A DNA stretch of 41,504 nucleotides, taken from contig JANNXQ010000019.1 in the NCBI GenBank assembly GCA_031409655.1, positions 1-41,504 of the forward strand. Direction: 5' to 3'. The translations under genes and the position numbers were made by a program. Shown in pieces: positions 4,257-19,116 of the stretch (the first letter of the stretch is position 1; every line of letters begins with the position of its first letter). Source of the DNA: Chthoniobacteraceae bacterium. Its GTDB lineage: Bacteria > Verrucomicrobiota > Verrucomicrobiia > Chthoniobacterales > Chthoniobacteraceae. The notes below the pieces were generated by a model. The model saw only the letters and a program-made list of their open reading frames with translations, did no database searches and had not been told where the DNA came from.

Positions 4257-7200
4257 TTATTGCTCCCTGGCGCGAGCCAGAGCCGTGTCGTATTGGCGGG
4301 TGAGAAAATCGTAGAGGACCATTTCGTGGGCGCGCTGACCGGAGCGCAGCAGGCGGTTCGCGTGCATGTGGAGATAGCTCGGCGCGAGTTCCGCGATCGG
4401 GATGGCCAGCCGGCCGGCGGCCTCGCACGCTTTCAACTCCGCGATGATCGGGGCCAGCTTGGTTGAGCGGTGGCGGAGGATTTCAAAACCGGGCGCAAGG
4501 GCGTGGTCGGCATCGGAAGCTGATGAGAGCAGGGCTTCCAAGCTCTGGCGCTCCTTGCGGTAGCGCTCGCTGAGCTGGGCTTTGAGCTTGGTGTCCGCGC
4601 GGAACTCGCGGGCGAAAGCCGCGCGCACGCTGTCGAGCACGGCGAACTTCCCCGGCAAATCGAGCCCGAGGTCCGTGAGCAGGGCATCCATGCCGCGCAG
4701 CGCGAGGCGCCAGCGTTCGTCGAGTCCGGCATCGCCTGACTCCACCAGATCGAGGATTTCGAGGACGGCTTCGCTGTCGATCTGGAAGAGCTGCTCCGCG
4801 AGTAACGTGCCTTCGTCGCCGCCGTAACGCTCGACTTCCCGCTCGTAGGTATCGAACTGCACGCGCCAGAGCTGGCCACGGTGCAGGAGCGGATGCACGG
4901 CGCGTTCGACGGCGGGCAGCACTTCTCCGCGCAACCGCTCCGGGTCGCCGTGAAAGCGCACCCGCAGATGGTGTTCGGGATCGGCGTAGCGGATGAAAAA
5001 CCAACGATTCGCCGCGCCCGCGCCGAGCACCTCGGCGACCAGCGGATGGATCACCTCGCGCAGCACTTCGTCCGCAGTCGCGGTGCCGGTATAGAGCTTG
5101 GCGTAGAGCCATTCCGAGCCGGGCGGGAAAGTGCGCGGCGCCGGCGAGCGCGCGCTCCCGCGGCGGGCCGTGCCGGGAACGTGCGGATGGATCGCGTTGC
5201 CGGGCTCGGCGCTGGCGGGTGCGGTGCGAATGAATGGCACGACGAACTCATGGACGTAGCGGCCTTCGGGTCCGCAGGCAATGAGCAGATCCGGCGCGGG
5301 AAATACTTCGACCAGCGTGGCCTCGTCGCGTCCCTTCACGCGATCCACGAAGGTCTCGACGCAGAGGACGTTGTCGAGATCGAGCGGGAGATGATTGTCG
5401 AAATCGGTCAGCGCGACGTAACGCGGCAGCCGCCGCGCGGTGCGCCACACCTGCAAGGCGCGGAATCGTTCCGCGCCATGCTTCACGCCCAGCGAGTGGA
5501 GCTCATCTTTGGTCGCGTTCCATTGGGCGCGGGCGAGCACCACTTTCCCCGCCGAGACGCGGGGCAGAAACGGCGCACGCTGGAGGATGCCCCAGTCCCA
5601 GCCGAGCGAGGCGGTTCCTTGCATCTGCAGCGCGCACAGGAATCTGTAGGTCGGCAGACTATTCCACGCGTAATTGTGCGCGCTGGTCAGCCGCGGAATG
5701 ACTTCGCGGTCGAGACGCGCGGAGAAGAGCGCGAGACGTCCATCGCGCACGGCGAGGCGCAGATCGGTGATGGGAAGCTGCTGCTCCGGGGTGGCGCCGG
5801 AGTGGCCGAGGTAGGGAATTTCATGCGCGCGCAGCACCGGTCGCGCGAGGATATTGCCGAGCCGGCCTTCCGGCAGGTGGACGATCTCCGCAAACACCGC
5901 CTCGGGATGCAGCGCTTCCTCCGCGCGCAAGTAGCGCTCGACCTGGCGGTGCAGCTCCGGATCGGCGTGGCAGAAGCGACCGAGCAGCGCCGCGCCGGAG
6001 GGTCCGCGCACCTCGCCCAGGAGCACGCGAAAATCGCCGGTCACGAGCGCCGCCTCGGAAGCCGCGGCCACCGTCGCCATGACCGCAAAGGAATCCGGCA
6101 GCGCGGGCGATTCCTTTGCCGCCATCTCGTCCAGGTCCTTGCTGCCGAGCAGGATTTCCGAGCTGCTGTTTGCGAGCGCCTCGGCCAGTTTGCGCAGCAG
6201 CAGATTTTCGCGCGCGTCCCAGCGCGCAGTGCCGTCTTTGTCGCGGGGAAACGTCAGACCCTTGAGCAGCGGCGAGGTTTCACCGCCGCGCGCGACGGGA
6301 AAGCCGAGGCCCGTTTCGCCATCCAGCGCCTCGACCAGCGGGACGAGCCGGCCCTCATACCGCGTCGCGAAAGCCTCGCGAAAACGCGCGAGTTCATCGC
6401 TGGCCGGCGGGAGCGGACGGGCGAGCCGGTGCAGGAGTTCGACGCCGCGGTTGAGTTCGGCGAGGACCTGGCCGCCGAGGGTCAGCGTGGCGGCGGGCTT
6501 GACCATCTCCACCTGCACGAGCCGGGAGATTTCGACCTTCGCCGGCAAGTCCGCGAGCACCGCGGCCACCGCGCGGTAGCGCTCGGGCGGATGGCCCAGG
6601 CCCGCCGCATCCAGCGACTCAAGCGTGGCGTGGATCTGCTCCAGCGCGCGAGTCGCGGTGGCCAGCGCGGGATGCGGGGAAAACTGCGCGGTGAGCGCGT
6701 GGATCGGCTCCGGTCCCGTGACCGCGAGCGCGATGTCGGGCATCAGGATCTGGCTCTCGATCAGCCCGGCGACGTATTCCTCCGCTTCCGCCGAGGTGAT
6801 CTCTTTATCCACCAGCGCGGCCGCCAAATCGGCACAGGTGGCGCCGTCGCGGGCTCGCGTCAGCGTGGCTTCCAGAAGGTCGGACACCTCGACCGCGACG
6901 AGGTGATAGGAACGCTCTTTGCCTTCCATCTTCGACTCGGCGTAACGCATGCGGCCCGCGGCGCGATAGAGGCTGGAATTCGGCCGGTAGGTGAAGATCG
7001 GGCGCAGCCCCGGATCGGCAGCGAGCAGGCCGGTGAGCGCGGCGAGGTAGTCCATGTCCAGCCGCGTGTGACGCCGCCACTCGGCGCGGCTGGCGAGCGT
7101 GATTTTCGTCGCGGCACCGATCGTCCCGACCGAGCAGCCCGCACAGAGCCCGAAGGGCGTGGCCCGGCCGGCCATGCGTAGAAAGTAACGCACCAGCGCC

Positions 7201-7514
7201 TGCTCGATGCCGCGTCCGCGTTCACTTTCCGGCTCGCGTTCCCACAGCCCGAAGCTCGCCTCCAGATCGGGCGAGGCCACAAACAAGGCTTCGCGCACTT
7301 CCGCCCGCACCATGGCCGCATGCAGACGCGACCGGAGTCGGGAGCGATCCGCGGCGAGCGCTGGATCGAGCCGCTCGGCATCGTGCAACGCCGCGGGAGC
7401 TTCCAGTCCATCGCTCCACGCGAGCAGTTCATCGAAGGGCAACAGCGGGGTGCGCAGGGCGAAGAAATCCGCGGAAATGAATGCCGGGAGTTTCCGGCTT
7501 TTGGACGCGGCCAT
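4257..7514 (-). CDS. lanB: Class I lanthipeptide dehydratase LanB (glutamylation + elimination domains)
   Basis: LRTPLLP, RYFLRMAGRATPFG, GRFCH, PRLTSAHNY, PFLPRV; C-terminal FPPGSEWLYAKLY...WFFIRYADPEHHLRVRF...YEREVERYGG...SYLHMHANRL. ATG at 7514 lies just after the lanC stop (1085 aa). Confidence 0.95.
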   Translation of the reverse strand: MAASKSRKLPAFISADFFALRTPLLPFDELLAWSDGLEAPAALHDAERLDPALAADRSRLRSRLHAAMVRAEVREALFVASPDLEASFGLWEREPESERGRGIEQALVRYFLRMAGRATPFGLCAGCSVGTIGAATKITLASRAEWRRHTRLDMDYLAALTGLLAADPGLRPIFTYRPNSSLYRAAGRMRYAESKMEGKERSYHLVAVEVSDLLEATLTRARDGATCADLAAALVDKEITSAEAEEYVAGLIESQILMPDIALAVTGPEPIHALTAQFSPHPALATATRALEQIHATLESLDAAGLGHPPERYRAVAAVLADLPAKVEISRLVQVEMVKPAATLTLGGQVLAELNRGVELLHRLARPLPPASDELARFREAFATRYEGRLVPLVEALDGETGLGFPVARGGETSPLLKGLTFPRDKDGTARWDARENLLLRKLAEALANSSSEILLGSKDLDEMAAKESPALPDSFAVMATVAAASEAALVTGDFRVLLGEVRGPSGAALLGRFCHADPELHRQVERYLRAEEALHPEAVFAEIVHLPEGRLGNILARPVLRAHEIPYLGHSGATPEQQLPITDLRLAVRDGRLALFSARLDREVIPRLTSAHNYAWNSLPTYRFLCALQMQGTASLGWDWGILQRAPFLPRVSAGKVVLARAQWNATKDELHSLGVKHGAERFRALQVWRTARRLPRYVALTDFDNHLPLDLDNVLCVETFVDRVKGRDEATLVEVFPAPDLLIACGPEGRYVHEFVVPFIRTAPASAEPGNAIHPHVPGTARRGSARSPAPRTFPPGSEWLYAKLYTGTATADEVLREVIHPLVAEVLGAGAANRWFFIRYADPEHHLRVRFHGDPERLRGEVLPAVERAVHPLLHRGQLWRVQFDTYEREVERYGGDEGTLLAEQLFQIDSEAVLEILDLVESGDAGLDERWRLALRGMDALLTDLGLDLPGKFAVLDSVRAAFAREFRADTKLKAQLSERYRKERQSLEALLSSASDADHALAPGFEILRHRSTKLAPIIAELKACEAAGRLAIPIAELAPSYLHMHANRLLRSGQRAHEMVLYDFLTRQYDTALARAREQ

Positions 7515-7516
7515 GA

Positions 7517-8854
7517 TCACGCGATCTTCTCCGCGGGGATAGACGCGAGCAACATCCGATCCCACTCCGGCTCGCGTTCCGTGGTCGCCGCGAGGAGCGC
7601 GAGCGCCACGCCCGCCGCGCCTTCGAGGAGGCCCCGCTCCGCCACCCAGCGCACTTCGCGGGGCCGCTCGGGATCGGGCATCATCGCGGAGAAGCCGGCG
7701 ATGCTCTGGTCCGGTTGCCGCATCGCCAGAGCGCGCGCCAACCAGCCGCGCGCGGCAACCCCGAGCGTCTCGTCACCCGTGGCCTGGAAGAGGCGGTTGA
7801 AGAGATGGCCCACCCCGGCCGCGCCGTGGCAGAGGCCGCAGTCCACCACCCCGGATTGTTCCGCAGGACGAGCGGCGGCGCGGTGCGCGATGCGCAAGGC
7901 TTCGCGTTCCCAAGCCGGCTCCCGCGCACCACGGGCGGCCTGGAGCAGCGCCACCGCGACCCCGAGATCGCCGTAGCACCACGCCAGCCGCGCGGGCGTT
8001 GGCGAAATGCCCGGTCCGACCCAATAGGGAAAACTTTGCGCGCGATCATCGGGCTCCTGGGCGAGCAACCACGCCACCGCGCCGTCGAGAAGCGCGCGGG
8101 CTTTTTGGCGGGGACCGTCCAGTCCCTCATCGCCGCGCGCACCCACCTGACCGAGCAGCGCAATCACGCCCGGCACGCCGTGCGCCAATCCGACGTCGTA
8201 ATAACCCTCGGGATACTCTTCGCACTGCTCGGACGGGAGCCGCTCGGGCGCGGTGCGCCAGGTGATTCCCCCAGCGGTGCGTTCCGCCAATCCATCCAGA
8301 CCATCCACCACCAACGCGAGGCCCGTGACGCCCGCTGGCTGCGGCAGGCGTTCCAGCGCATAGCATCCGAAGCCCACCAGGCCACTGACGAGGTCATAGT
8401 CCCCACGCCAGGGCGATTGGAGGAGGAGTTCGCGCAGCGCGGCGTCCACGGCCGCGTTGGGATCGTCTTCGCCGGCCTCGAAAAGCCGCCCCTCCAGATG
8501 CGCCACGGCCCAGGCCGTGCCAGTGAAGCCGCCAAAAAGCCCGGGCGTGCTCCGCGCAGCGCCGACCGCCTCGACCGCCTCATTCAGAAAATCCACGGCG
8601 CTTTCCTCCGCCGCGTCCACCAGCCCGGATTCGGCGAGGCTGGCGTAAAACACGGCGAGCCCCGCGCATCCACCTGCGAGCGAGCCAGCGGCCCTTTCCT
8701 CCGGAAGCAAGACCGCCCGCGGCTGCCGCAGCGCCTGGGCGATCGCCAGGATCACCTCGCGGGCCTGCGCTCCCACCTCGCCATCGAGGATCGGCACCCA
8801 CGATCCGCCCGGATTTTTCGGAGCGCTTGAAGGCGTGGGCTGAATGTCTCTCAT
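7517..8854 (-). CDS. lanC: Lanthionine cyclase LanC
   Basis: YDLVSG, GLAHGVPG, AWCYGDLG and GLCHGAAG; the Zn-ligand Cys/Cys/His residues are present. Confidence 0.95.
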   Translation of the reverse strand: MRDIQPTPSSAPKNPGGSWVPILDGEVGAQAREVILAIAQALRQPRAVLLPEERAAGSLAGGCAGLAVFYASLAESGLVDAAEESAVDFLNEAVEAVGAARSTPGLFGGFTGTAWAVAHLEGRLFEAGEDDPNAAVDAALRELLLQSPWRGDYDLVSGLVGFGCYALERLPQPAGVTGLALVVDGLDGLAERTAGGITWRTAPERLPSEQCEEYPEGYYDVGLAHGVPGVIALLGQVGARGDEGLDGPRQKARALLDGAVAWLLAQEPDDRAQSFPYWVGPGISPTPARLAWCYGDLGVAVALLQAARGAREPAWEREALRIAHRAAARPAEQSGVVDCGLCHGAAGVGHLFNRLFQATGDETLGVAARGWLARALAMRQPDQSIAGFSAMMPDPERPREVRWVAERGLLEGAAGVALALLAATTEREPEWDRMLLASIPAEKIA

Positions 8855-8893
8855 TGCCGGGGAATCAGCGGCAGCATCGGTTTCCTCCTCGCC

Positions 8894-9754
8894 CTACGCC
8901 AGCAGCTCGGCCCGGCCCTCGTTCAGCCGCGCCAGGTCGATGAGATACTGCTCCTCCTCCGCGTCGAGCGGCCCTTCCTCCAGAGCGGCGGCCAGGCCTG
9001 CGACCTCCTCCGGCGTCGTGGGTGAGCAGAGCAGCCCGTCGAGTTCGGGCCGCGTGAGGGCAAAGCGGTGATAGTCCGTCACCCGCGGTTGCCAGTGATC
9101 GTCGTTCAGGCCCAGCTTCGCAAAGCGCTCCGGCGCCACGAAGCCGTGGGTGTTGGTGAAGTTGTAGAGCAAGGTTGCGCGCCGTTTTTCGAGGTGGGGG
9201 AAGACATCGTGCCGCGCGCCGGGGTGCGCCGGGTTGTAGCGGAGAAAGGCGAGATCGACCAGGCCGTGATTGACCGCGAGCAGCGCCGCCTCACGGTCGT
9301 GAAAAGACGCGCCAATGGCCCGGACTCCGGCGAAACCGCGCCGACGATGCTCCTGATACACCGGCAGCCGGGTCAGAAACTCGTGCGCATACGCCCCGCC
9401 GGCCACCGCCACGTCCACCGTTTCCAGCCCCGGCACCGCCTCCAAGACTTCCTCCAATCCCATCCAGCAAAACTCGGGCTGCGTCGGATAAATCGAGACC
9501 GCCACCACGATCTGCCTCCGAACCTCGGGGTCACGCGCCAGCAACAGCTCCAAGCCGCGGCGCGACGCTTCATAGTTCGGCCAGTGCAGATCAGCACTGA
9601 GGAAGAAAAAGTTGATCCCGGCATCAAACGCCGCCGCAATGGCCTCCGGAGACCGGACATATCCAAGGCAGAACGGACTAACGCTCAGCCTGGCTCTCCC
9701 CAGGCTGAGACGATCCCTGAATCTGGGCAGTGCGGGGCGCGAGGGTATCGTCAG
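8894..9754 (-). CDS. Aldo/keto-reductase-like oxidoreductase in the RiPP operon (start uncertain)
   Basis: LGRARLSVSPFCLG, AAFDAGINFF and GVRAIGASFH...LRYN resemble AKR TIM-barrel motifs. There is no ATG between the last precursor stop and these motifs, so CTG at 9754 is assumed. Confidence 0.65.
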   Translation of the reverse strand: MTIPSRPALPRFRDRLSLGRARLSVSPFCLGYVRSPEAIAAAFDAGINFFFLSADLHWPNYEASRRGLELLLARDPEVRRQIVVAVSIYPTQPEFCWMGLEEVLEAVPGLETVDVAVAGGAYAHEFLTRLPVYQEHRRRGFAGVRAIGASFHDREAALLAVNHGLVDLAFLRYNPAHPGARHDVFPHLEKRRATLLYNFTNTHGFVAPERFAKLGLNDDHWQPRVTDYHRFALTRPELDGLLCSPTTPEEVAGLAAALEEGPLDAEEEQYLIDLARLNEGRAELLA

Positions 9755-9771
9755 AAAACGGTTGGGGGATG

Positions 9772-9969
9772 TTAGGTGACGATGCTGCTGGCTACGTTGC
9801 TGCCTTTTGACACCACCGCGCCCCCAGAACTCCGCCCGCCTCGAATCGCCCCGGCATCCCGATCCGACAGGTTCTCGACCGTTTCCTTGGTGAGCTTCAG
9901 GCTCTTGATCTTCACTTTGCCTTTGCTCGACGGTGCGGCAGCTTCTTCGTGGATCTTTTTCGTTTTCAT
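9772..9969 (-). CDS. lanA: RiPP precursor A8; core RSSGGAVVSKGSNVASSIVT (Cys-free)
   Basis: 45-aa leader with LKLTKETVENL...IRGG. Confidence 0.85.
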   Translation of the reverse strand: MKTKKIHEEAAAPSSKGKVKIKSLKLTKETVENLSDRDAGAIRGGRSSGGAVVSKGSNVASSIVT

Positions 9970-10166
9970 GTTGGGCCACTCTGACCTGATATGCTACCAC
10001 TGATAGACTTAGTTTTCACCGATCCTGACACCCCGCCCCTTACGGCACCGGCGGCCGTATCCGACAGGTTCTCGATGGTTTCCTTGGTGAGCTTCAGGCT
10101 CTTAATCTTCACTTTGCCTTTCGGCGTTGGTGCGGCGGCTTCTTCGTGGGTCTTTTTGGATCTCAT
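9966..10166 (-). CDS. lanA: RiPP precursor A7; core VSGSVKTKSISGSISGQSGPT (Cys-free)
   Basis: Same 45-aa leader ending VRGG; ATGA overlap with A8. Confidence 0.85.
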   Translation of the reverse strand: MRSKKTHEEAAAPTPKGKVKIKSLKLTKETIENLSDTAAGAVRGGVSGSVKTKSISGSISGQSGPT

Positions 10167-10230
10167 GATGGGTTCTTTTTTTGAGTTGCGTGTTGGTTTT
10201 TCAGAGCGGGCGGCAGCCGATGCATTCCTT

Positions 10231-10407
10231 TCAGGTGTTTCCAGTTCTTCGTGAACCTAACGAGCCAGACCCTCCGCCCCGGACCGACCCCGCATCCTGA
10301 TCCGACAGGTTCCCGACGGTTTCCTTGCTGAGCTTCAGGCTCTTGATCTTCACCTTGCCTTGAGGAGACGGCTTGGTGGCTTCTTGTTTGGTCGTTTTCG
10401 TTTTCAT
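10231..10407 (-). CDS. lanA: RiPP precursor A6 (58 aa, missing from the ORF track); core GSGSLGSRRTGNT (Cys-free)
   Basis: Manual translation: MKTKTTKQEATKPSPQGKVKIKSLKLSKETVGNLSDQDAGSVRGG-GSGSLGSRRTGNT*. Confidence 0.85.
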   Translation of the reverse strand: MKTKTTKQEATKPSPQGKVKIKSLKLSKETVGNLSDQDAGSVRGGGSGSLGSRRTGNT

Positions 10408-10422
10408 GATGGGTTCTTTGCT

Positions 10423-10599
10423 TCAGCGGGTGGCAGTGCGGGCGGAGCATGTCCACGTGTAACCCCCGCCCTTCACCGTCCCGGCGTTGGCATCAGACAG
10501 GTTCCCGACGGTTTCCTTGGTGAGCTTCAGGCTCTTGATCTTCACCTTGCCTTTCGGCGACGGTGCAGCGGCTTCTTCGTGGGTCTTTTTGTTTTTCAT
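10423..10599 (-). CDS. lanA: Lanthipeptide precursor A5; core GYTWTCSARTATR
   Basis: ATG at 10599; leader MKNKKTHEEAAAPSPKGKVKIKSLKLTKETVGNLSDANAGTVKGG. Confidence 0.88.
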   Translation of the reverse strand: MKNKKTHEEAAAPSPKGKVKIKSLKLTKETVGNLSDANAGTVKGGGYTWTCSARTATR

Positions 10600-10747
10600 G
10601 ATGGGTTCGTTTCTTAGTTTTAGTTCTTTGGTTGGACTGGCGATGCGTGCGGTAGGCCGTGCGTAATCCAGCGACCTTTCGACGCTGCGGAAAAACAGAG
10701 GGCTCTGGGCACACGAGCCTCGGCTCAGGGCTGGCGGCATCAACCTT

Positions 10748-10942
10748 TTAGATTGATCTTGGCGGACAACTACACCCCGAGCCCGCAGCCCTACCCGTCG
10801 CTGCCGCCCCACCCCTGACAGCGTCGGCAGCGGTATCCGACAGGTTCTCGATGGTTTCCTTATGAAGTTTCAGGCTCTTGATCTTCACCTTGCCTTTCGG
10901 CGTCGGCGTGGCGGCTTCTTCGTGGGTCTTTTTGGATCTCAT
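10748..10942 (-). CDS. lanA: Lanthipeptide precursor A4; core AAATGRAAGSGCSCPPRSI
   Basis: Same leader ending VRGG; core has 2 Cys plus Ser/Thr. Confidence 0.88.
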   Translation of the reverse strand: MRSKKTHEEAATPTPKGKVKIKSLKLHKETIENLSDTAADAVRGGAAATGRAAGSGCSCPPRSI

Positions 10943-11006
10943 GATGGGTTCTTTTTCTGAGTTACGTGTTGGTTGGTCTGAGCGGGCGGCACCCGATGGG
11001 TTCCTT

Positions 11007-11192
11007 TCAGGTGTTTCCGGTTTTGATACTGCCGCCTCCGCATCTGTCCGAGTAGCCTCCGCCCTTCACAGCCTTGGCGTCGGCATCAGAGAGATTCCCG
11101 ACGGTCTCCTTGGTGAGCTTCAGGCTCTTGATCTGCACCTTGCCCTTCGGCGTCGGCGTGGCGGCTTCTTCGTGGGTCTTTTTCGTTTTCAT
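11007..11192 (-). CDS. lanA: Lanthipeptide precursor A3; core GYSDRCGGGSIKTGNT
   Basis: ATG at 11192; same leader ending VKGG. Confidence 0.88.
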   Translation of the reverse strand: MKTKKTHEEAATPTPKGKVQIKSLKLTKETVGNLSDADAKAVKGGGYSDRCGGGSIKTGNT

Positions 11193-11211
11193 AGTGGGGT
11201 TCTTGCGGGGG

Positions 11212-11640
11212 TTAGTGGGCGGACAACGGACCAAGGCGGGCGGCGGATTGTTTCCGCTCGATCCGCGAATCCATCCAGAACCGGATCACGGCCTTCAGCC
11301 CGGTGTGGGGCGCGAGCCAGAGTGCGAATCGCTCGCCGTGCCGCAGATACAGCGCATGGAACCAAGCCGGAGAATCTTCCGTCAGCCAGTCGCGGAAGAG
11401 CATCCAACGTGGGTTCTCTTCCCCGTAAACGGCGCGAGCGATCCAGCATGCCACTATGACGGTGCCACCCGCCGCTGAATTGTCCCTCGGACATTTGGTA
11501 GTAATTCCACCTTTCACGAGCCCCGCATCGTGGTCAGAGAGATCCGCGATCGTTTCCTTTTGGAGCTTCAGATTCTTGATCTTCACCTTGCCTTTCGGCG
11601 TCGGCGTGGCGGCTTCTTCGTGGGTCTTTTTGGTTTTCAT
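11212..11640 (-). CDS. lanA: Precursor A2: leader + 19-aa core ITTKCPRDNSAAGGTVIVA + 78-aa CWIARAVYG domain
   Basis: ATG at 11640, 142 aa; the C-terminal domain is 73/78 identical to that of A1. Confidence 0.85.
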   Translation of the reverse strand: MKTKKTHEEAATPTPKGKVKIKNLKLQKETIADLSDHDAGLVKGGITTKCPRDNSAAGGTVIVACWIARAVYGEENPRWMLFRDWLTEDSPAWFHALYLRHGERFALWLAPHTGLKAVIRFWMDSRIERKQSAARLGPLSAH

Positions 11641-11659
11641 GGTGTGATTTGTTTCTTGG

Positions 11660-12088
11660 TCAATGAGCGGACAACGGAGCAAGGCGGGCGGTGGATTGTT
11701 TCCGCTCGATCCGCGAATCCATCCAGAACCGGATCGCGGCCTTCAGCCCGGTGTGCGGCGCGAGCCAGAGCGCGAACCGCTCGCCATGCCGCAGATACAG
11801 CGCATGGAACCAAGCCGGAGAATCTTCCATCAGCCAGTCGCGGAAGAGCATCCACCGCGGGTTCTCTTCCCCGTAAACGGCGCGCGCGACCCAGCATTGC
11901 GCGACAGCGGTTCCTCCTCCTCCGGCATTTCCACCATTATTCCTAGAACCAGCTCCCCCTTTTACACCCCCGGCATCCGAGTCCGACAGGTTCTCGATGG
12001 TTTCCTTGCTGAGTTTCAGATTCTTGATCTTCACCTTGCCCTTCGGCGTCGGCGTGGCGGCTTCTTCGTGGGTTTTTTTGGTCTTCAT
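11660..12088 (-). CDS. lanA: Precursor A1: leader + 19-aa core AGSRNNGGNAGGGGTAVAQ + 78-aa CWVARAVYG domain
   Basis: 142 aa; LKLSKETIENL...VKGG leader followed by core and an aromatic-rich C-terminal domain. Confidence 0.85.
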   Translation of the reverse strand: MKTKKTHEEAATPTPKGKVKIKNLKLSKETIENLSDSDAGGVKGGAGSRNNGGNAGGGGTAVAQCWVARAVYGEENPRWMLFRDWLMEDSPAWFHALYLRHGERFALWLAPHTGLKAAIRFWMDSRIERKQSTARLAPLSAH

Positions 12089-12297
12089 GGGGTGCTGGTT
12101 TCTTCAGTTCCGGGTTTTTTTGGTTTGGTCTGTTTTTTCCCTGTCCGGCCTCCGGTGCTGCCAAACAGGGTGCGGCCTCCGCCGGTGACATCCCGCGTGG
12201 GAATCAGGTCGTCGAGACGAATGACCCGCGTCTTTACGGCCCGCTTCTTCGGCGGATCGGGTTCGTTTTTTGGCGGCTCTTTTTCTCCGGGGCTCAC
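12085..12297 (-). CDS. Small basic protein with an internal double-glycine motif (IRLDDLIPTRDVTGG); possible second precursor type
   Basis: GTG at 12297, 70 aa; its TGA overlaps the ATG of A1 (ATGA coupling). Confidence 0.5.
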   Translation of the reverse strand: MSPGEKEPPKNEPDPPKKRAVKTRVIRLDDLIPTRDVTGGGRTLFGSTGGRTGKKQTKPKKPGTEETSTP

Positions 12298-12310
12298 GAA
12301 CCGATACCTT

Positions 12311-12326
12311 ATCAGGACGCGTGCCG
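12311..12326 (-). promoter_or_regulatory. Candidate sigma54 (-24/-12) promoter for the precursor-AKR-lanC-lanB operon
   Basis: CGGCACG-CGTC-CTGAT versus consensus TGGCACG-N4-TTGCW; the -12 box is imperfect (GA); an activator gene is adjacent. Confidence 0.4.
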
Positions 12327-12364
12327 ACCCGCCGGGATCGCTGCCTCCAGCCCGAGGACACGCC

Positions 12365-12380
12365 GGGACAGAAAATTGCA
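12365..12380 (+). promoter_or_regulatory. Candidate sigma54 promoter for the activator/export arm
   Basis: GGGACAG-AAAA-TTGCA gives GG-N10-GC spacing with a perfect -12 box and an imperfect -24 box. Confidence 0.35.
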
Positions 12381-12610
12381 ACCCGCTGGTGACGAGACGA
12401 TTACGCACGTGGGGAAAGGCCGGAAAAAAGTGCGGACGAGGCAGTGGTGGACTTTCCGCGGGGAAATGGGTGGCTCCGGCGTGGAGCCAGATGGCCCTGT
12501 ATCGATCCGGCCGCGGCCCCATGGTGAGCCCGCGCCGAGGTGGAAACGCTCGCCCTCGCCGGAAGATCGGCCTACAAACGCGTTTCACTCGGAAGTCGGC
12601 TGCCACGCCC

Positions 12611-13612
12611 ATGATTTCGCCCGCGCTTTTCCAACTCAAAGTCGAGGAACTGACCTCGGCCAATGTCGCCATGCAGCGCTGCCTGAAGCTGGCCGCGCTG
12701 GCCGCGCAGAGCGACATCCCGGTGCTCATCCTCGGCCCCACTGGCACGGGCAAGACCCTGCTCGCCCAAGCCATCCATAATTCCTCCGCGCGCGCCGCCG
12801 GGCCGTTCGTCTCCTTCAACGCCTCTGCGATGAGCGACACGCTGCTCGAGAGCGAACTCTTCGGCCACGAGCGCGGGGCCTTCACCGGGGCGCGGCAGAT
12901 GCACAAGGGCCGCTTCGAGATGGCGCACGCCGGCACCCTCTTCCTCGACGAAATCGCGGACATGAGCCCGCTCGCCCAGGCGAAGATCCTCCGGGCTGTG
13001 GAATACGGCGAATTTGAGCGGGTGGGGGGCGAAGGGATGCATCGCTCGGATGCGCGCATCATCTCCGCGACGAATTGCTCGCTGCGCGAACGCATCCGCG
13101 CGCGGAGATTCCGCGAAGACCTCTACCACCGGCTCGATGGCCTGGTGCTGCTCATCCCGCCGCTGCGGGAGCGGGTGGAGGATCTGCCGTCGCTCATCGC
13201 GCTGGAACTCAAGGCCGCCGCCGTGGAAGCCGGGAAACGGATCACTTCCATCCATCCTGCCGCGATGGATCGGCTGCTCGGCTACGAATGGCCCGGCAAT
13301 CTCCGCGAGCTGCATCACACGATGCGGAGCGTGGCGCTTTTCTGCGAAGGCAAGGTGGTCCAGCCTGAGCACGTTGGCTTTCAGCGAGACCTCGCGCCCG
13401 AATCCCCTCCCCGCGCAGAGCCGCTAACGGATGCACCCAGCGCGGACCGTGCGGGAACCGCCGCCGAGGATCAGACGCTGGCCCGCGCCACGAGAGAACA
13501 TGTACAGCGAGTCCACGAATCCACCGGCCGGAATCAGCGCCGGACCGCCCGACTCCTCGGCATTTCCCGAGGGAAGCTCGTCCGCCATCTCGCGCAGATG
13601 GAGGGAAAATAG
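12611..13612 (+). CDS. Sigma54-dependent transcriptional activator (AAA+ and Fis-type HTH, no sensory domain)
   Basis: GPTGTGKT, ESELFGHERGAFTGA, LFLDEI, FREDLYHRL, WPGNLREL, TARLLGISR; ATG at 12611. Confidence 0.92.
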   Translation: MISPALFQLKVEELTSANVAMQRCLKLAALAAQSDIPVLILGPTGTGKTLLAQAIHNSSARAAGPFVSFNASAMSDTLLESELFGHERGAFTGARQMHKGRFEMAHAGTLFLDEIADMSPLAQAKILRAVEYGEFERVGGEGMHRSDARIISATNCSLRERIRARRFREDLYHRLDGLVLLIPPLRERVEDLPSLIALELKAAAVEAGKRITSIHPAAMDRLLGYEWPGNLRELHHTMRSVALFCEGKVVQPEHVGFQRDLAPESPPRAEPLTDAPSADRAGTAAEDQTLARATREHVQRVHESTGRNQRRTARLLGISRGKLVRHLAQMEGK

Positions 13613-13740
13613 GGGCGTGCTGATCGCGGGCGATGCCTCGGGCGGGCTGCTTTCAGACCTTTGCGCAGCAGGGTTTTGTGACGCGGATGATTCCCCGAGA
13701 TGGGGATTCCAAATTTTGGAATTGCGGGTAATCTCAAGAG

Positions 13741-14802
13741 GTGATCCCGCCCCCGGAGCGAAACCGAACTGTCTTCATTGCTGCGGGTCGTGAGATTACG
13801 GTCTGGGATGTCGTCGATGCCGCCGGCTTCCGGGGTGAGTTGGCTGGGGCGTGGAATCAACTGGCGATCCTCCTGGGAGCCGGGGAGCGGGCGGCTGGAC
13901 TGGAAGTGGATGAAGAAGTGGCGCAAGCCACGTCGGAAAAGTTCCGCTCCGAGCGCGGCTTGATCACGGCAGAGGAAACGGAAAGCTGGCTCGATCAGCG
14001 CGGGCTGACCACGGATGATTTCAGCGACTACTTCGTCCGGCACTACTGGGACGAACTCTTCCGCGGGCAGATCACGGCAAGCGGCGGCGACTATCTCTCG
14101 GCTGCGGAGGAACTCCGCGATTTGCTCCGGGTCGAGCTGTGGTTTTCAGGGGAATTTGCGCGGCTGGCGGGGCGGCTGAGCTGGCGCTACGCCGCCCTGG
14201 ATGGCGCCCCCAGCGGGATCACGCCCGAACTGATCGAGGCCGAAGGGGAACGATTCCGGGCGCGTGCCGGCCTCGAGGCGGGAGCGGTCGCGGCCTGGCT
14301 CTACCAGATGGGTCGTGACCAGCGCTGGCTCGAGGAGATGCTCGCGCTCGAGGCCGCGTATCACCGCGAATGCGCAGCGGCGACGAACCTGAAAGAGCAG
14401 GAAAGGATGCTGCGGGAACATCGGATCTCCTGGACGCGGGTGGAGCTGGAGACGGTCGATCTGGATTCCCCGGCGGCCGCTCGCGAGGCGCTGCTCTGCG
14501 CGCGGGAAGACGAGACCTCCTTGCTGGAAATCGCGACCGAGGGGCGCTACCCGCATCGCCGCGCCACTTTGCTGATCGAGGAATTTGCGCCAGAGCGCCA
14601 GCCAGCGCTGCTCTGCGGGGCGCCGGGCGAAGTCCTCGAGCCGTGGGCGCGCGCCGAGGGCTTTCAGCTCTGCCGGATCCTGCGCAAGATCGAGCCGGCG
14701 CTGGCCGATCCCGTGATCCACGAGCGCGTCGAACGGCTGATCCTCGAACGCCATTTTTCCGAGCTGACGACGCAGCACATTCGCTGGTCGTTCGGCCTGT
14801 GA
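13741..14802 (+). CDS. PpiC/SurA-like foldase-type accessory protein of the peptide export system
   Basis: Acidic helical protein (FRSERGLITAEETESWL..., C-terminal GEVLEPWARAEGFQLCRILRKIEP). It lies just upstream of the C39 ABC exporter, a position where PpiC-like proteins are commonly found. Confidence 0.55.
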   Translation: MIPPPERNRTVFIAAGREITVWDVVDAAGFRGELAGAWNQLAILLGAGERAAGLEVDEEVAQATSEKFRSERGLITAEETESWLDQRGLTTDDFSDYFVRHYWDELFRGQITASGGDYLSAAEELRDLLRVELWFSGEFARLAGRLSWRYAALDGAPSGITPELIEAEGERFRARAGLEAGAVAAWLYQMGRDQRWLEEMLALEAAYHRECAAATNLKEQERMLREHRISWTRVELETVDLDSPAAAREALLCAREDETSLLEIATEGRYPHRRATLLIEEFAPERQPALLCGAPGEVLEPWARAEGFQLCRILRKIEPALADPVIHERVERLILERHFSELTTQHIRWSFGL

Positions 14803-14808
14803 CCGCCC

Positions 14809-17800
14809 ATGCCCGAGTCGCTCGATGAACTCCTGCAACGCTCGGCGCTCTTCCGCTCGCTGCCGGTCGAGCACGCGGAAAAGTTGCGCCCGCTGCTCCG
14901 CGAGGAGCACTTCGAGTTTGGCGACGTGATCGTGAAGCAAGGCGACGCGGCGGATGCGCTCTACCTGCTCACCTCGGGCCGGGCGCGCGTGGTGAAGGTG
15001 ACGGAGAGCGGGGAGGAAATCGCCCTGACGACGCTGCGTCCCGGCGACGAGTTTGGCGAGCTGGCGCTGATCTCCGGCGGGACCCGGAATGCCACGGTGC
15101 GCTGCAGCACCGCAGTGGACGCACTCCGGCTCGACGTGAAGGATTTTCTGCCCCTGCTCGCGCTCCATCCCGAACTCCGGCGCTCGATCGAAACGACGGC
15201 GCGGACCCGGACCTTGCACGGGTTCCTCTACGAGTTCAGCAATTTCGGCCGATTGTCCGCACGCGTCCTGCATGCCCTCGTCGAAAAGCTTTCGCCGGTC
15301 GATTTCAAAAAGGGAGACCTCATCCTCCGCGAGGGCGATCCGCCCGGGGCGATGTTCATCGTGCAGACCGGTCGGGTCCGGGTCTTTGCCAGTCCCAATG
15401 GGCGCGCGCTCAACCTCGCCTTCTATCGTGGAGGCGATTTTTTCGGCGAGCTTTCGCTCCTGAATGACACGCCGCGCGCGGCGTCCGCCGAAGCCATGAC
15501 GGACAGCCACTTGCTCGCCTTGCAGCCGGGCGATGTGCGGGAGCTGGAGGAGCGCTTTCCGGAGTTCCGCAGCTTCCTCGAAGAGCGCCGGACGCAATAC
15601 CGGGCGGGCACCGAGGCGCGGGTGCCGCTGGACTTTGCGGAGGAAGCGCTGCCCGCGGAAGCGCGCCCGAACGACAAGGTCGCCATCGACGGCGAGAATG
15701 GCGCGATGCCCGAAAGCGACGAGCCTTTTGCCGATGAACGCGGGCTCTTTCGCAAGCGCCGTGGCCGCATCCGGAAGATCCCGCACATCCGGCAGATCGA
15801 CGAGATGGATTGCGGGGCGGCGGCGCTCGGGATGATCTGCCGGCACTTCGGGCGTGCGGTGAGCCTCGCGCACATCCGGCAGCTCTGTCACACGGCGCGC
15901 GATGGCACGAGCCTCAAGGGCATCTGCCGCGCCGCCAGCGAACTCGGTCTGGCGGCGCGCGCGCTGAAAGTTTCCCCGCGCAATCTGCCGCAGATGCCGC
16001 TCCCGGCAATCATCCACTGGGATGGCAACCACTGGATGGTGCTCTACGATGTCGGCAAAACGGAGGTGCGCGTGAGCGATCCGGCATTTGGCGCGCGGCG
16101 CATCCCGCGGGCCGAATTTGCCGAGAAGTGGACCGGCTACGCGGCGCTCTTCGACTTCACGGAGGAATTCAAAAACGCCCCGGAAGGAGGCTCGACCTTT
16201 AGTTGGCTGGGGCCATTTCTACGCCGGCACGCCGCCACTCTGCGCCAGGCGCTGCTCCTCGCGGGAGTCGTGACTTTCCTCCAACTGCTCTTCCCCATCT
16301 TCACGCAACTGGTGGTGGATAAAGTGGTGATCGGCGATGACCTCGGGCTGCTCACCACGATCCTGATCGCGATGGGGGTCGCGCTCGTCTTCATGCAGGT
16401 GGCCAACCTCGCGCAGCAATATCTGCTGAGCTTTGCCGCGGTGCGCATCGACGCGGCGATCCTCGACTTCCTGACGCGGAAGATGCTGGCGCTGCCGATG
16501 TCCTACTTCAGCACCCGGCGCACGGGCGACATCCAGCGCCGGCTCGATGGCGCGCGGCAGATCCGGCTCTTCGCGGTCCAGCATGGGATCGGCGGCGGGC
16601 TCGCGCTGGTGACGCTCGTCGGCGCAGTGGTCTTGATGGCATTCTACAATCTCGCGCTCGCGGGCACCTTCCTGGCCACCGCGCCGCTCTACGTGGGCAT
16701 GATGTTTTTTTCGGTCAAAGTGCTCCGGCCACTCTTCGCCGACATCGAGGAAAGCCAGGGCAAATACGCTTCACACCAGATCGACGCGATCAAGGGCATC
16801 GAAGCGGTCAAGGCGGCGTCCGCGGAGCTGAATTTTCGCGACGCGATGCTCCACGAATTCCTCGGTGTCTCGCGAAAAATGTTCCGCGCGAATTTCATCA
16901 TCATGTCCTACGACAGCGTGCTCCAGTCCATCGGGTTGCTCTCGACCGCACTCTTCCTGTGGGTCGGGGCCAACAAGGTGATCACCGGGCAGATCACGGT
17001 GGGCGCATTCGTCGCCTTCAGTTCGCTCACTGCCCTGGCCTACGCCGCGATCCTGCGGACGCTCGGCATCTGGGACGAATGGCAGCAGGTGTCCGTCCTG
17101 CTGAACCGGCTCAACGACGTCTTTGAGGCAGAGCCCGAGCAGGGCCGTGACCGCTCGCGCCTCACGCCGGTGCCCTTGCTCGAGGGGCGGATCGAATTGC
17201 GCAAGGTCGGCTTCAAATACGGCGGCCCGGAAGCGCCGGATATTTTGCGCGGGCTCGACCTCGCCTTCGGGCCCGGCCAGACCGTCGCCATCGTGGGTCG
17301 CAGCGGCAGCGGCAAGACCACGCTGATCAAGCTCCTGGCCGGCCTCATCGAACCAACCGCCGGCACCATCCTCGTCGATCATACCGATCTCAAGACGCTC
17401 AACTATCGGGAGGTGCGGCGGCAGATCGGGATGGTCTTGCAGGACAACCACATGTTCAACGAGACCATCCTGCGCAACATCGCCTTTGGAGATCCGGAGC
17501 CGGATTTCGACCGCATCCTCTGGTGCGCCCAAACCGCGAACGCCCACGACTTCATCATGCGCCTGCCGCTGGGTTACGAGTCGCGGATCGGTGAATCGGG
17601 GCTCGGTTTGTCCGGCGGACAAAAGCAACGCATCGCGATCGCCCGCGCCCTTTATCTCGACCCGCCCATCCTGATTTTCGACGAAGCGACCAGCGCCCTC
17701 GACACCGAGTCGGAACGCGCCATCCAGGGAAATCTGGGCCGCATGACCGCAGGCCGGACCTGCATCGTCATCGCCCACCGCCTGAGCACCATTCGCGACG

Positions 17801-17916
17801 CGGACAAGATCGTCGTTTTGGAAAAAGGCGAAATCGCCGAAGTCGGGACGCACGACGAACTCATGGCCCGGCGCGGACTCTACTTCCATCTCTCCAGCCA
17901 GCAGCTCGGCATCTGA
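14809..17916 (+). CDS. lanT: Peptidase-containing ABC transporter: 2x cNMP-binding + C39 peptidase + TMD + NBD
   Basis: FGELALI...RNATV and FGELSLL...RAASA (cNMP); QIDEMDCGAAAL and HWMVLY...DP (C39 Cys/His/Asp); GRSGSGKT, LSGGQKQR, DEATSALD. Confidence 0.93.
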   Translation: MPESLDELLQRSALFRSLPVEHAEKLRPLLREEHFEFGDVIVKQGDAADALYLLTSGRARVVKVTESGEEIALTTLRPGDEFGELALISGGTRNATVRCSTAVDALRLDVKDFLPLLALHPELRRSIETTARTRTLHGFLYEFSNFGRLSARVLHALVEKLSPVDFKKGDLILREGDPPGAMFIVQTGRVRVFASPNGRALNLAFYRGGDFFGELSLLNDTPRAASAEAMTDSHLLALQPGDVRELEERFPEFRSFLEERRTQYRAGTEARVPLDFAEEALPAEARPNDKVAIDGENGAMPESDEPFADERGLFRKRRGRIRKIPHIRQIDEMDCGAAALGMICRHFGRAVSLAHIRQLCHTARDGTSLKGICRAASELGLAARALKVSPRNLPQMPLPAIIHWDGNHWMVLYDVGKTEVRVSDPAFGARRIPRAEFAEKWTGYAALFDFTEEFKNAPEGGSTFSWLGPFLRRHAATLRQALLLAGVVTFLQLLFPIFTQLVVDKVVIGDDLGLLTTILIAMGVALVFMQVANLAQQYLLSFAAVRIDAAILDFLTRKMLALPMSYFSTRRTGDIQRRLDGARQIRLFAVQHGIGGGLALVTLVGAVVLMAFYNLALAGTFLATAPLYVGMMFFSVKVLRPLFADIEESQGKYASHQIDAIKGIEAVKAASAELNFRDAMLHEFLGVSRKMFRANFIIMSYDSVLQSIGLLSTALFLWVGANKVITGQITVGAFVAFSSLTALAYAAILRTLGIWDEWQQVSVLLNRLNDVFEAEPEQGRDRSRLTPVPLLEGRIELRKVGFKYGGPEAPDILRGLDLAFGPGQTVAIVGRSGSGKTTLIKLLAGLIEPTAGTILVDHTDLKTLNYREVRRQIGMVLQDNHMFNETILRNIAFGDPEPDFDRILWCAQTANAHDFIMRLPLGYESRIGESGLGLSGGQKQRIAIARALYLDPPILIFDEATSALDTESERAIQGNLGRMTAGRTCIVIAHRLSTIRDADKIVVLEKGEIAEVGTHDELMARRGLYFHLSSQQLGI

Positions 17917-17925
17917 TCGCGAGCC

Positions 17926-19116
17926 ATGAATCCCACCCCGCAGCCCAAGCCCAGAGGCTCGCTCGACCGCGAATCGGAGATGCTCCCGCAGGATCCGCCG
18001 CACTCCGTCGTCCGCTGGATCGGATGGCTGATCCTCGCGCTTTTCTCTGCCGTGCTGGCCGCGTCGATCGTCGTGCGTCTGCCGGAGACGGTGCAGTGTC
18101 CCTTTGTGCTCGTGCCCAAAGACGGCGCCGACCCTATCAAGACGCCTCTGATGGTCGTGATCAGCGAAGTGCGCGTGACCGAGGCGCAGGAGGTCGCCGC
18201 GGGCGACGAGCTTTTCGTGCTGCGCTCGGATGAGATTCGCAACCGGCACACGCAGCTCCGGACCGTGACCGAAGACCTGCGCGCCAAGACCGAAAGCATC
18301 GCGAAGATGGAGGTCTCGCACGCCGCTCAGCTCAACATCAAGCACTCGGAGATTTCCCAGATCGAACGCGAGTTGCTCTTCCGGAAGAAGCACGCCGACA
18401 CCAGCCGCGACCTGGTCGCGCGCCTGAGCAGGCTCGCCGCCGGGGGCGGGATTTCCCAGATCGAACTCGCGCGCCTCGAACTCGACCTCGCCGGGTCGGA
18501 GAAAGACCTGAGCATTACCGAGAAGAACCTCGAAGCGGCGCATCTCGAACGCGAGCGGCTCGAAACCGAGCGGGCGCGCCAGCGCAGCGACGAGCAGGCC
18601 ACCGCGCAGAATCTCAAGTCGCGGATCGACGCGCTCCAACGCGATCTCGAAAACTCCCGGCAGGACTTCCTCTCGATCCGCGCGCCCTACGCTGCAGTCG
18701 TCCTCTCCGTCGCCCGGCGCACTCCGGGCGACGTCGTGCAGGCCGGCGGAGAGCTTTGCCAGCTCGCTCGCATCGACGCCATCCCACACGCCCGCCTGAC
18801 CCTCGGCGAGCGCGGCTTGTCGCGGCTCACGGAAGGCCAGCGCGTGCGCCTTTTTTTCGACGCCTTCCCCTACCAGCGCTACGGGAGCATCACCGGCAAC
18901 CTTGATTGGATCAGCCCCGCGGCTGTTTCGGCGTCCGGGGGACCGCAGTTCGTCGCGCGGACTTCGCTCGGGCAGAATTTCATCCGCGTCAAAGGCGAAC
19001 CCCGGCCCTTGCGAGTCGGGATGAAGGGCGAAGCGCGCATCGTCGTGGGCAGCCGCGCGCTCATCGAATACGCCTTCGAGCCTGCCCGCCAACTGCGCGA
19101 AAACCTGCGCCCATGA
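17926..19116 (+). CDS. HlyD-family type I secretion membrane fusion protein
   Basis: N-terminal TM helix, long coiled coil, FDAFPYQRYGSITG, LRVGMKGEARI. Confidence 0.9.
   Translation: MNPTPQPKPRGSLDRESEMLPQDPPHSVVRWIGWLILALFSAVLAASIVVRLPETVQCPFVLVPKDGADPIKTPLMVVISEVRVTEAQEVAAGDELFVLRSDEIRNRHTQLRTVTEDLRAKTESIAKMEVSHAAQLNIKHSEISQIERELLFRKKHADTSRDLVARLSRLAAGGGISQIELARLELDLAGSEKDLSITEKNLEAAHLERERLETERARQRSDEQATAQNLKSRIDALQRDLENSRQDFLSIRAPYAAVVLSVARRTPGDVVQAGGELCQLARIDAIPHARLTLGERGLSRLTEGQRVRLFFDAFPYQRYGSITGNLDWISPAAVSASGGPQFVARTSLGQNFIRVKGEPRPLRVGMKGEARIVVGSRALIEYAFEPARQLRENLRP

Follow-up and report, generated by a model that had tools for sequence, protein, structure and literature searches.

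A multi-precursor class I lanthipeptide-type locus of Verrucomicrobiota as a probable composite of an export module and a LanB-associated modification module

This article describes a gene cluster of the class I lanthipeptide type in a soil bacterium of the Chthoniobacteraceae (Verrucomicrobiota), at positions 4257-19116 of a contig of 41,504 nucleotides (C19; JANNXQ010000019.1 of assembly GCA_031409655.1). The whole contig was analysed and is referred to here as the window; it belongs to a 6.85-Mb genome bin of 306 contigs, with 94.9% completeness and 5.26% contamination. The cluster brings together one LanB/LanC pair, eight precursors with a common leader, a protein with the fold of aldo-keto reductases (AKR) and a divergent arm for regulation and export. 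Comparison with related genomes and with metagenome contigs suggests that it is probably a composite of two modules, one for export and one for modification.

Organization of the Locus

The minus strand carries an operon-like run of eight small genes (9772-12088), the AKR-fold gene, LanC and LanB. From the same 520-bp gap a plus-strand arm diverges, encoding a sigma-54 activator, a PpiC-like protein, a peptidase-containing ATP-binding cassette (ABC) transporter (PCAT) and HlyD. All elements named in the original prediction, which was made from the sequence of this DNA, were found where it had placed them. Aldehyde and alcohol dehydrogenases lie on the left, and a ComM/Mg-chelatase-like ATPase, a sigma-70 factor, pyruvate kinase and asparagine synthase on the right; since both flanks hold housekeeping genes, 4257-19116 is taken as the right extent of the cluster. 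The G+C content is 0.68-0.71 in LanB and LanC, 0.56-0.60 in the precursors and 0.60-0.65 in the flanks, a contrast weakly in line with a separate origin.

LanB (4257-7565, minus strand; 1102 amino acids, aa) is a full-length class I dehydratase that holds the glutamylation and elimination domains in one protein (PF04738, residues 87-738, E 5e-165; PF14028, residues 819-1091, E 2.5e-74), and its gene is the sole LanB match of the genome. The LanC cyclase (7517-8854, minus strand; 445 aa; PF05147, E 7.1e-33) contains WCYG and LCHG motifs, putative zinc ligands by analogy with NisC. A LanB with both domains and a separate LanC with its motifs assign the system to class I, and the prediction of a class I multi-precursor system with one LanB/LanC pair thereby gained Pfam support. 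Dehydration by LanB depends on Glu-tRNA and cyclization by LanC on zinc, and a PCAT acting with HlyD cleaves after Gly-Gly (GG) and exports the product.

The plus-strand arm opens with a sigma-54 enhancer-binding protein (12608-13612; 334 aa) that consists of the AAA+ domain and lid only (PF00158, E 3e-61; PF25601) and has no sensor domain; its start had been predicted at 11663, and the true start is 12608. It is followed by a PpiC/SurA-like "peptide maturation" protein (13741-14802, plus strand; 353 aa) that matches TIGR04500 over two stretches with 49.5 bits against a cutoff of 180. This protein had been called a foldase, a name that draws on the weak TIGR04500 match and on its neighbours in the ESM Atlas, where the nearest clusters are Verrucomicrobiota hypotheticals and then distant rotamases. 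Pfam gives no match, and a phmmer search of the Protein Data Bank (PDB) returned only a chance match (E 0.64). The PCAT (14809-17916, plus strand; 1035 aa) has two N-terminal cyclic nucleotide monophosphate (cNMP)-binding domains, a C39 peptidase with visible Cys and His motifs (DCGAAAL and HW), and the ABC membrane and ATPase domains that define such a transporter (PF03412, PF00664, PF00005); it scores 542.7 bits with TIGR03796 (cutoff 853). The arm ends with the HlyD periplasmic adaptor (17926-19116, plus strand; PF13437, E 1.4e-12; TIGR01843, E 1e-34; TIGR03794, 38.6 bits, cutoff 156).

The Precursor Array and Its Leaders

The eight predicted precursors with a common 45-aa leader are present at 9772-12088 on the minus strand. 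In all eight the leader follows the pattern M(K/R)(T/S/N)K(K/T)...KGKV(K/Q)IK(S/N)LKLxKETxxxLSDxxAxxV(K/R)GG, with a visible LxLxKx5L motif (LKLTKETIENL) and terminal GG. Leaders with LxLxKx5L that end in GG are described for class I precursors of Bacteroidetes by Walker et al. (2020, PMC7268733), and motif and GG in eight of eight agree with the predicted leader type. Seven precursors match the profile NF038153 (lant_leader_L1a) at E <= 0.0032, of which only precursor 5 passes the 22-bit cutoff; precursor 4, queried as a longer open reading frame (ORF) of 129 aa, gave no match. Across the 6.85-Mb genome the leader was matched eight times, always inside this array.

Precursors 1 (9772-9969; 65 aa; core RSSGGAVVSKGSNVASSIVT; NF038153 17.6 bits), 2 (9966-10166; 66 aa; core VSGSVKTKSISGSISGQSGPT; 21.0 bits) and 3 (10231-10407; 58 aa; core GSGSLGSRRTGNT; 21.0 bits) have Gly/Ser/Thr-rich cores of 20, 21 and 13 aa which, being free of Cys, have no lanthionine potential. 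One Cys is found in the cores of precursor 4 (10423-10599, ATG at 10599; 58 aa; GYTWTCSARTATR) and precursor 6 (11007-11192, ATG at 11192; 61 aa; GYSDRCGGGSIKTGNT; 18.7 bits), and two in that of precursor 5 (10748-10942; 64 aa; AAATGRAAGSGCSCPPRSI; 23.8 bits). Precursors 7 (11212-11640) and 8 (11660-12088), both of 142 aa and 82% identical, share another architecture: the 45-aa leader, a 19-aa Ser/Thr/Cys segment and a 78-aa domain resembling CFI-box-CTERM, which begins at Cys65 (11215-11448 in precursor 7, 11663-11896 in precursor 8). All lie on the minus strand. Ser/Thr and Cys thus occur together in five of the eight (4 to 8), and cores 1-3 have Ser/Thr without Cys.

The cores had been described as largely unrelated. 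They do differ, but precursors 7 and 8 are close to each other and some short cores share motifs: cores 4 and 6 each begin GY(T/S) with Cys three residues further, and cores 3 and 6 share the ending TGNT. Core 4 also resembles the [FY]TQVxCSxATGGS cores of a metagenome locus (L054). One leader on many different cores is naturally read as a single enzyme set that serves several of them. A "lanthipeptide library", however, claims too much: three of the eight cores cannot form lanthionine and two "cores" are 97-aa domain proteins.

A gene missed by the original inventory lies next to precursor 8 at 12085-12297 (minus strand; 70 aa). The gene begins with GTG and terminates in a TGA that overlaps precursor 8's ATG. 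This candidate ninth peptide has a short leader, ...TRVIRLDDLIPTRDVTGGG, and a Cys-free core; in its sequence ...KKRAVKTRVIRLDDLIPTRDVTGGG precedes a tail rich in Lys and Thr and free of Cys. The metagenome contig closest to the window (L034) keeps it, with an in-frame 3-nucleotide indel and mostly third-position changes, and a peptide adjoining the export module of a LanB-less relative, G041, shares 43% identity with it over 54 aa (E 6e-10). With moderate confidence it is considered a real gene, which would belong to the export-module type.

The Export Arm in Relatives without LanB

The distribution of the cluster's genes was surveyed in 60 genomes that share its genus, family or order. LanB was found in none of the 60, nor in 400 sampled genomes of the phylum, a scan in which few candidates per genome were scored; the AKR-fold family is likewise found in none of the 60. 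The PpiC-like protein occurs in three of them, G049, G041 and G012. In G049 and G041 it stands side by side with the other genes of the arm, and identities to the window are 44-47% for the PpiC-like protein, 55-61% for HlyD and 64% for the activator; G012 holds at least the PpiC-like protein and the PCAT. The PCAT is 68-76% identical in all three.

In G041 the module is followed by six GG-leader peptide genes (L120:7362-8863) with Cys-free cores and short leaders of the ...IKVRDLKPKKDAKGG type, one of which is the homologue of the ninth peptide; G049 has one GG-leader gene. Two of the six G041 peptides have an identical core, PISWPGRN. The G041 array and module look like a peptide secretion system of Verrucomicrobiota, and since export arm and GG-leader peptides occur together in relatives that lack LanB, the export system of this lineage works without lanthipeptide enzymes. 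The leaders of these relatives have no LxLxKx5L; those of the window carry an extra segment of the TKETIENLSD type that completes it.

The picture of one complete dedicated system, proposed originally, was not supported by this comparison: the export arm occurs in relatives without LanB, LanC or the AKR-fold gene, and two modules appear joined. The verrucomicrobial host, in turn, was supported, with the arm 44-76% identical in the same family or order and Verrucomicrobiota among the Atlas neighbours of the PpiC-like protein. The export module, native to the verrucomicrobial lineage, would comprise the sensor-less activator, the PpiC-like protein, the C39-ABC exporter with cNMP-binding domains, HlyD and the ninth peptide. 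The modification module, of a kind common in soil metagenomes, would comprise the LanB-LanC-AKR-fold set and the eight precursors with the extra LxLxKx5L leader element.

The AKR-fold Protein and Its LanB-linked Family

The AKR-fold protein (8894-9754, minus strand; ~286 aa) belongs to an unnamed family linked to LanB. The gene on record for it (P0067, 204 aa) begins internally, and the N-terminus LPRFTDRLxLG is conserved in 37 aligned family members. An AF2 model built on this 37-sequence alignment (pLDDT 92, pTM 0.91) was matched by Foldseek to AKRtyl, L-galactose dehydrogenase and AKR11A (best E 9e-13, TM 0.65-0.71, ~18% identity), and 28 of 30 ESM Atlas neighbours carry PF00248. The protein itself stays below the PF00248 gathering score (E 0.23; 10.9 bits against 24), and phmmer against the PDB found nothing. 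The catalytic tetrad of AKRs is Asp-Tyr-Lys-His. In a profile alignment the FFD, VYGW and ATK of AKRtyl are paired with fff, Dlh(W) and avv in the family, that is, the canonical Asp, Tyr and Lys face Phe, Leu and Val in an alignment of such low identity that an offset of a residue or two is possible. Invariant residues of the family's own include D54, H56, W57, Y60 and R64. Of the "AKR-like enzyme" originally proposed, the fold is therefore sustained by Foldseek, AF2 and the Atlas; Pfam support is lacking and the canonical Asp/Tyr/Lys are not aligned.

A word-indexed search returned 704 homologues at E <= 1e-5, of ~290 aa and 55-88% identical among the best 120; they are mostly unnamed, and the few taxon labels are Acidobacteriota and Planctomycetes. 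With the alignment as query, a scan of metagenomes gave 260 matching relatives, of which the best 80 loci were kept and their genes called by tblastn with the window proteins. On these contigs, mostly of 1-5 kb, LanB was present in 25 of the 80 loci, PCAT in 14, LanC in 10 and a sigma-54 activator in 5; at least one of LanB, LanC, PCAT or precursor was found in 38. LanB accompanies the gene in 8 of the 13 loci that extend 5 kb or more to one side and in 6 of the 9 that extend 3 kb or more to either side of it, counts that are not independent, L070 and L073 being near-duplicates. A leader model made from the window's eight leaders gave 40 matches, spread over 15 of the 80 loci and forming arrays with as many as seven members. 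Among the unique cores linked to them, 26 of 31 are Cys-free, typically of 11-16 aa and of the GGxSGxV(L/V)(Q/R)(S/G)(R/T) kind. Between its AKR-fold gene and LanB, locus L054 carries four precursors that have another leader and a single Cys apiece, and its 19 kb gave no tblastn match to LanC. Given this and the 10 loci with LanC against 25 with LanB, LanC appears to be optional in the AKR-linked family, and the AKR-fold protein to be the more constant companion.

A Pfam survey of ten of the longer loci (83 ORFs) added a split LanB (L093), Ser/Thr kinases with WD40, PD40 or TPR repeats, FHA sigma-54 activators and radical SAM enzymes. The kinases adjoin the AKR-fold gene at L054, L074, L082, L094, L105, L106 and L107; FHA-domain proteins or FHA-sigma-54 activators occur at L074, L082, L094 and L107, and L106 has a sigma-54 activator without an FHA match. 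This arrangement suggests control of the AKR-linked peptide family from kinase to FHA activator; the window's own sigma-54 activator has no FHA domain. At L046 (7916-11286) the interval from a Cys-free precursor array to LanB is occupied by a JmjC/cupin-like protein and a radical SAM protein of 671 aa (DUF5825), both conceivable as additional tailoring enzymes.

The C-terminal Domain of Precursors 7 and 8

The domain opens with an invariant Cys 19 residues after the leader and continues as CW(V/I)ARAVYGEENPRW... A homologue search with precursor 8 gave 24 proteins, the window's two included, and 15 of these have the succession of leader, ~20 aa, Cys and domain; P0009 and P0011 of this type are two paralogues on one 113-kb NCBI contig. 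In the alignment, Ser or Thr stands 4-7 residues (mostly 5-6) before the invariant Cys in 10 of 13 leader-bearing proteins that keep the Cys, a spacing compatible with a conserved ring though no proof of one.

By layout the domain resembles CFI-box-CTERM (NF041770): it is C-terminal, has ~70 aa with Cys first, and aligns with the profile from end to end. Precursor 7 scores 18.0 bits (profile positions 1-66 of 69) and precursor 8 15.9 bits against a cutoff of 40; in six of eight sequences tested the alignment runs from the Cys over positions 1-66/67 of 69 with 15-27 bits, and the best score among relatives, 26.9 bits, is also below the cutoff. At best, the window's domain may be regarded as a divergent sister family of CFI-box-CTERM. 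No Pfam match was obtained. The AF2 model of the precursor 8 domain has four helices (pLDDT 81.6); Foldseek against the PDB found nothing at E <= 0.001, and a wide VIA search reached a Z of no more than 4.4, which for helical models is at noise level. In the openly licensed literature of PubMed Central (PMC) and bioRxiv, hereafter the open literature, no mention of the CFI-box-CTERM name or of a signature motif was found.

The wider distribution of the domain was traced by word-indexed searches, a pattern scan and 400 genomes of the phylum, among which it is rare (three genomes besides the window's own); across phyla it is conserved at 40-67% identity in the pattern scan. Copies elsewhere end unrelated extracytoplasmic proteins, always behind a low-complexity linker and with the invariant Cys at the start, and every copy seen is C-terminal except one, an internal second copy in L024. 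FliD Pfam domains are found in 21 of 36 longer homologues (P0026-P0057 among them); further copies end FecR-domain proteins of Alphaproteobacteria and 1600-aa VWA proteins of Planctomycetota that adjoin trypsin/PDZ proteases, or occur on proteins within SU10-like and other phage structural modules. LanB or LanC was found within 10 kb of the domain in none of 22 genome loci. The domain is probably a portable module of secreted proteins, here set behind a lanthipeptide leader.

Several of these settings are of interest in themselves. In seven loci from metagenome-assembled genomes (MAGs) of Opitutaceae (L011, L013, L014, L016-L019) the same FliD-like sequence is followed by an Asn/Ser-rich linker and the ~70-aa domain; such a helical C-terminal domain is an odd appendage on a FliD cap protein, which is exported via the flagellar channel. 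The sigma-54 activators that lie ~3 kb after FliD in Opitutaceae loci with the domain (6 of 22) are presumed to be flagellar regulators unrelated to the window cluster. In L028 (1539-4299) a VgrG-like protein (Phage_GPD, Phage_base_V, gp5_C) is directly followed by a 336-aa protein that ends in the domain and occupies the cargo-protein position of tail-like injection systems. A Pseudomonadota MAG contains four tandem genes (L022:9292-10636) and one elsewhere (L026:184-405) for domain proteins of 120-140 aa, with a short N-terminus that has a YxxPxL-like motif, then "...KILSITKP" and the C-terminal domain. A lasso-like leader, considered for the small Pseudomonadota domain proteins of L020, L022, L026, P0023 and P0024 from that YxxPxL-like motif, was dropped, no enzyme for peptides that are made by ribosomes and modified after translation (RiPPs) being seen nearby.

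Regulation and Neighbouring Genes

Sigma-54 promoters were sought with a -24/-12 consensus. The best candidate site, at 12365-12380 on the plus strand, has four mismatches, and no promoter that would link the activator with the precursors was found in the cluster. A conserved -24-like stretch upstream of precursor 8 was rejected: its GG-to-GC spacing is one base too long, and the coding sequence of the ninth peptide accounts for it better.

Elsewhere in the window, a partial protein with TIR, AAA_16 and NACHT domains runs off the left edge (1-1248, minus strand); its STAND-type architecture is frequent in anti-phage defence. On the other side, 24995-27055 (plus strand) encodes a 686-aa protein with DUF4350 and DUF6421 (E 8e-152).

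Proposed Pathway and Alternative Readings

Gene content, domain content, relatedness and distribution were computed here; from them the chemical steps, the choice of modified peptides and the control of the precursor operon by the activator are inferred. LanB would glutamylate Ser/Thr via Glu-tRNA and then eliminate to dehydro residues in the precursors with the L1a leader, all eight of which are its putative substrates. LanC would close thioether rings in the five Cys-bearing precursors, alkylating Cys65 in precursors 7 and 8; the three Cys-free cores would remain linear and dehydrated, as likely substrates of the AKR-fold protein, to which gene context assigns a presumed role on dehydro residues. 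The PCAT would cleave after Gly-Gly and export the products with HlyD, and precursors 7 and 8 would give rise to ~97-aa proteins in which a short modified tail sits on a four-helix CFI-box-CTERM-like domain. Taken jointly, the proposals that LanB and LanC cap a small folded protein and that the AKR-fold protein is a new kind of LanB partner enzyme are put forward tentatively, the combination being rather unlikely.

Several observations weigh against the composite and the pathway drawn from it. The contamination of the bin (5.26%) matters here, as membership of the contig is backed solely by the export arm that it has in common with relatives. The AKR-fold gene has no ATG, GTG or TTG at its conserved N-terminus, CTG at 9754-9752 being the sole near-cognate start. 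No sigma-54 promoter with three or fewer mismatches lies anywhere in the cluster. Most of the metagenome contigs are so short that absence of LanB or LanC from them carries little meaning, and three of the nine loci that extend 3 kb or more to either side of the AKR-fold gene (L074, L106, L109) have no LanB, so that the link is strong and not obligate. Finally, relatives export Cys-free GG peptides without LanB, and the Cys-free peptides of the window might stay unmodified.

One alternative is a single dedicated class I cluster. All eight precursors would then pass through a tolerant LanB/LanC to give a prochlorosin-like library, the divergent arm would be the cluster's own regulator and exporter, and the AKR-like protein would be an ordinary NAD(P)H reductase, for instance LanJ-like and forming D-amino acids. 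One leader on eight cores beside one LanB/LanC pair agrees with this, as do the confirmed AKR fold and the PCATs with cNMP domains that directly adjoin the AKR-fold gene at L036, L044, L046 and L052. However, the window's PCAT is 68-76% identical to those of LanB-less relatives and 35-43% to those of AKR-linked loci, three cores are Cys-free and two are 97-aa domain proteins, the catalytic Asp/Tyr/Lys of AKRs are aligned to Phe/Leu/Val, and aldo-keto reductases were not found in the open literature on lanthipeptides and LanJ. On balance this account is improbable. The same relatives bear on a more restricted one, by which LanB and LanC modify only the short Cys-bearing precursors 4, 5 and 6, and the other peptides use the leader as a ticket for export by the PCAT: they pair the module with Cys-free GG peptides that, without LanB, are presumably unmodified, and the domain of precursors 7 and 8, found in 22 genome loci without LanB/LanC within 10 kb, evidently needs no lanthipeptide chemistry. 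Yet the Cys-free and the domain-bearing precursors of the window keep the full LxLxKx5L element that the IKVRDLKPKKDAKGG-type leaders of the relatives lack. In addition, most unique cores (26 of 31) in metagenome loci linked to AKR-fold gene and LanB are without Cys, and the Ser/Thr 4-7 residues before Cys is kept in 10 of 13 leader-bearing domain proteins that retain the Cys. The restricted account is improbable as well.

It is also conceivable, although very improbable, that precursors 7 and 8 are the real payload and the short peptides accessory, with the domain as a portable effector or anchoring module comparable to the C-terminal domains of polymorphic toxins. Its position at the end of FliD (21 of 36 longer homologues), FecR-domain and giant VWA proteins would suit such a role, as would the copies on a protein just after a VgrG-like gene and within phage structural modules, the low-complexity linker that always precedes it and the invariant Cys that opens it. 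But toxins that evolve fast would not be expected to keep 40-67% identity across phyla, no partner resembling an immunity protein was identified, and there is no structural match (none by Foldseek at E <= 0.001; the best VIA Z, 4.4, is at noise level). The composite of two modules remains the probable reading.

For the evolution of RiPPs the locus would then amount to a natural experiment: an exporter, adaptor, PpiC-like protein and activator that handle plain GG-leader peptides in relatives are used in the window for peptides whose leader gained the LanB-associated LxLxKx5L element. The AKR-fold family, with ~700 members, neighbours LanB and multi-copy precursors, most of them Cys-free, in soil metagenomes, so that many "class I lanthipeptide" calls may mark a different product class. 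Should the proposals on capping and on the AKR-fold protein be right, the invariant Cys of precursors 7 and 8 and of 13 leader-bearing homologues would be stapled to a Ser/Thr ~five residues upstream, and a lanthionine-capped domain would be exported that belongs to a family otherwise ending FliD, FecR-domain, VWA, VgrG-adjacent and phage proteins. An AKR-fold protein without AKR catalytic residues would process dehydro residues in Cys-free cores, pointing to a widespread LanB-dependent yet largely lanthionine-free peptide family in soil bacteria. For the CFI-box-CTERM-like domain, its place behind a lanthipeptide leader offers a first handle, in the form of a defined operon that could be expressed and a processing site that can be predicted.

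Comparison with Known Systems

Class I clusters with an LxLxK/GG leader and a PCAT are of a kind already known from genome mining. Apparently new, as judged from the open literature in which they were not found, are the AKR-fold family as a LanB partner, precursors ending in a CFI-box-like domain and the modular origin of the locus; LanB with Cys-lacking multi-precursors in Acidobacteria or Planctomycetes, and a class I analogue of the prochlorosins, were not found there either.

The export arm recalls NHLP/Nif11-type export, in which a PCAT (TIGR03796), HlyD (TIGR03794) and a PpiC-related protein (TIGR04500) also stand beside GG-leader arrays, but all three matches are below the curated cutoffs and the window's leaders are neither NHLP nor Nif11. 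With CFI-box-CTERM the domain of precursors 7 and 8 shares the C-terminal position, the length of ~70 aa and the Cys in first place, and it differs in scoring below cutoff and in sitting on a lanthipeptide-type precursor. The AKR-fold protein is like AKRtyl (8JWL) and AKR11A (1PYF) in its TIM-barrel fold (E 9e-13) and unlike AKRs in staying below the Pfam threshold and in not conserving the canonical Asp/Tyr/Lys. Its position, next to LanB and Ser/Thr-rich Cys-free cores, is that expected of a LanJ-like reductase. The known LanJ types are of other families, one of them F420-dependent. Zinc dehydrogenase and flavin types are given by Walker et al. (2020, PMC7268733).

As in the prochlorosins, made by the class II enzyme ProcM, many precursors with one conserved leader and differing cores face a single enzyme set. 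The chemistry, however, is that of two class I enzymes and not of LanM, the leader is L1a and not Nif11, and the precursors are clustered and not scattered; promiscuity of the enzymes here is putative. A close parallel is offered by the Bacteroidetes class I clusters of the LxLxKx5L/GG type (PMC7268733), which include the pinensin family and likewise combine LanB and LanC, the leader motif and a C39-ABC exporter. Unlike these, the window belongs to a verrucomicrobial host, has a full-length and not a split LanB, contains eight precursors of which three are Cys-free and two carry a 78-aa domain, and adds an AKR-fold partner and an export arm that it has in common with relatives lacking LanB.

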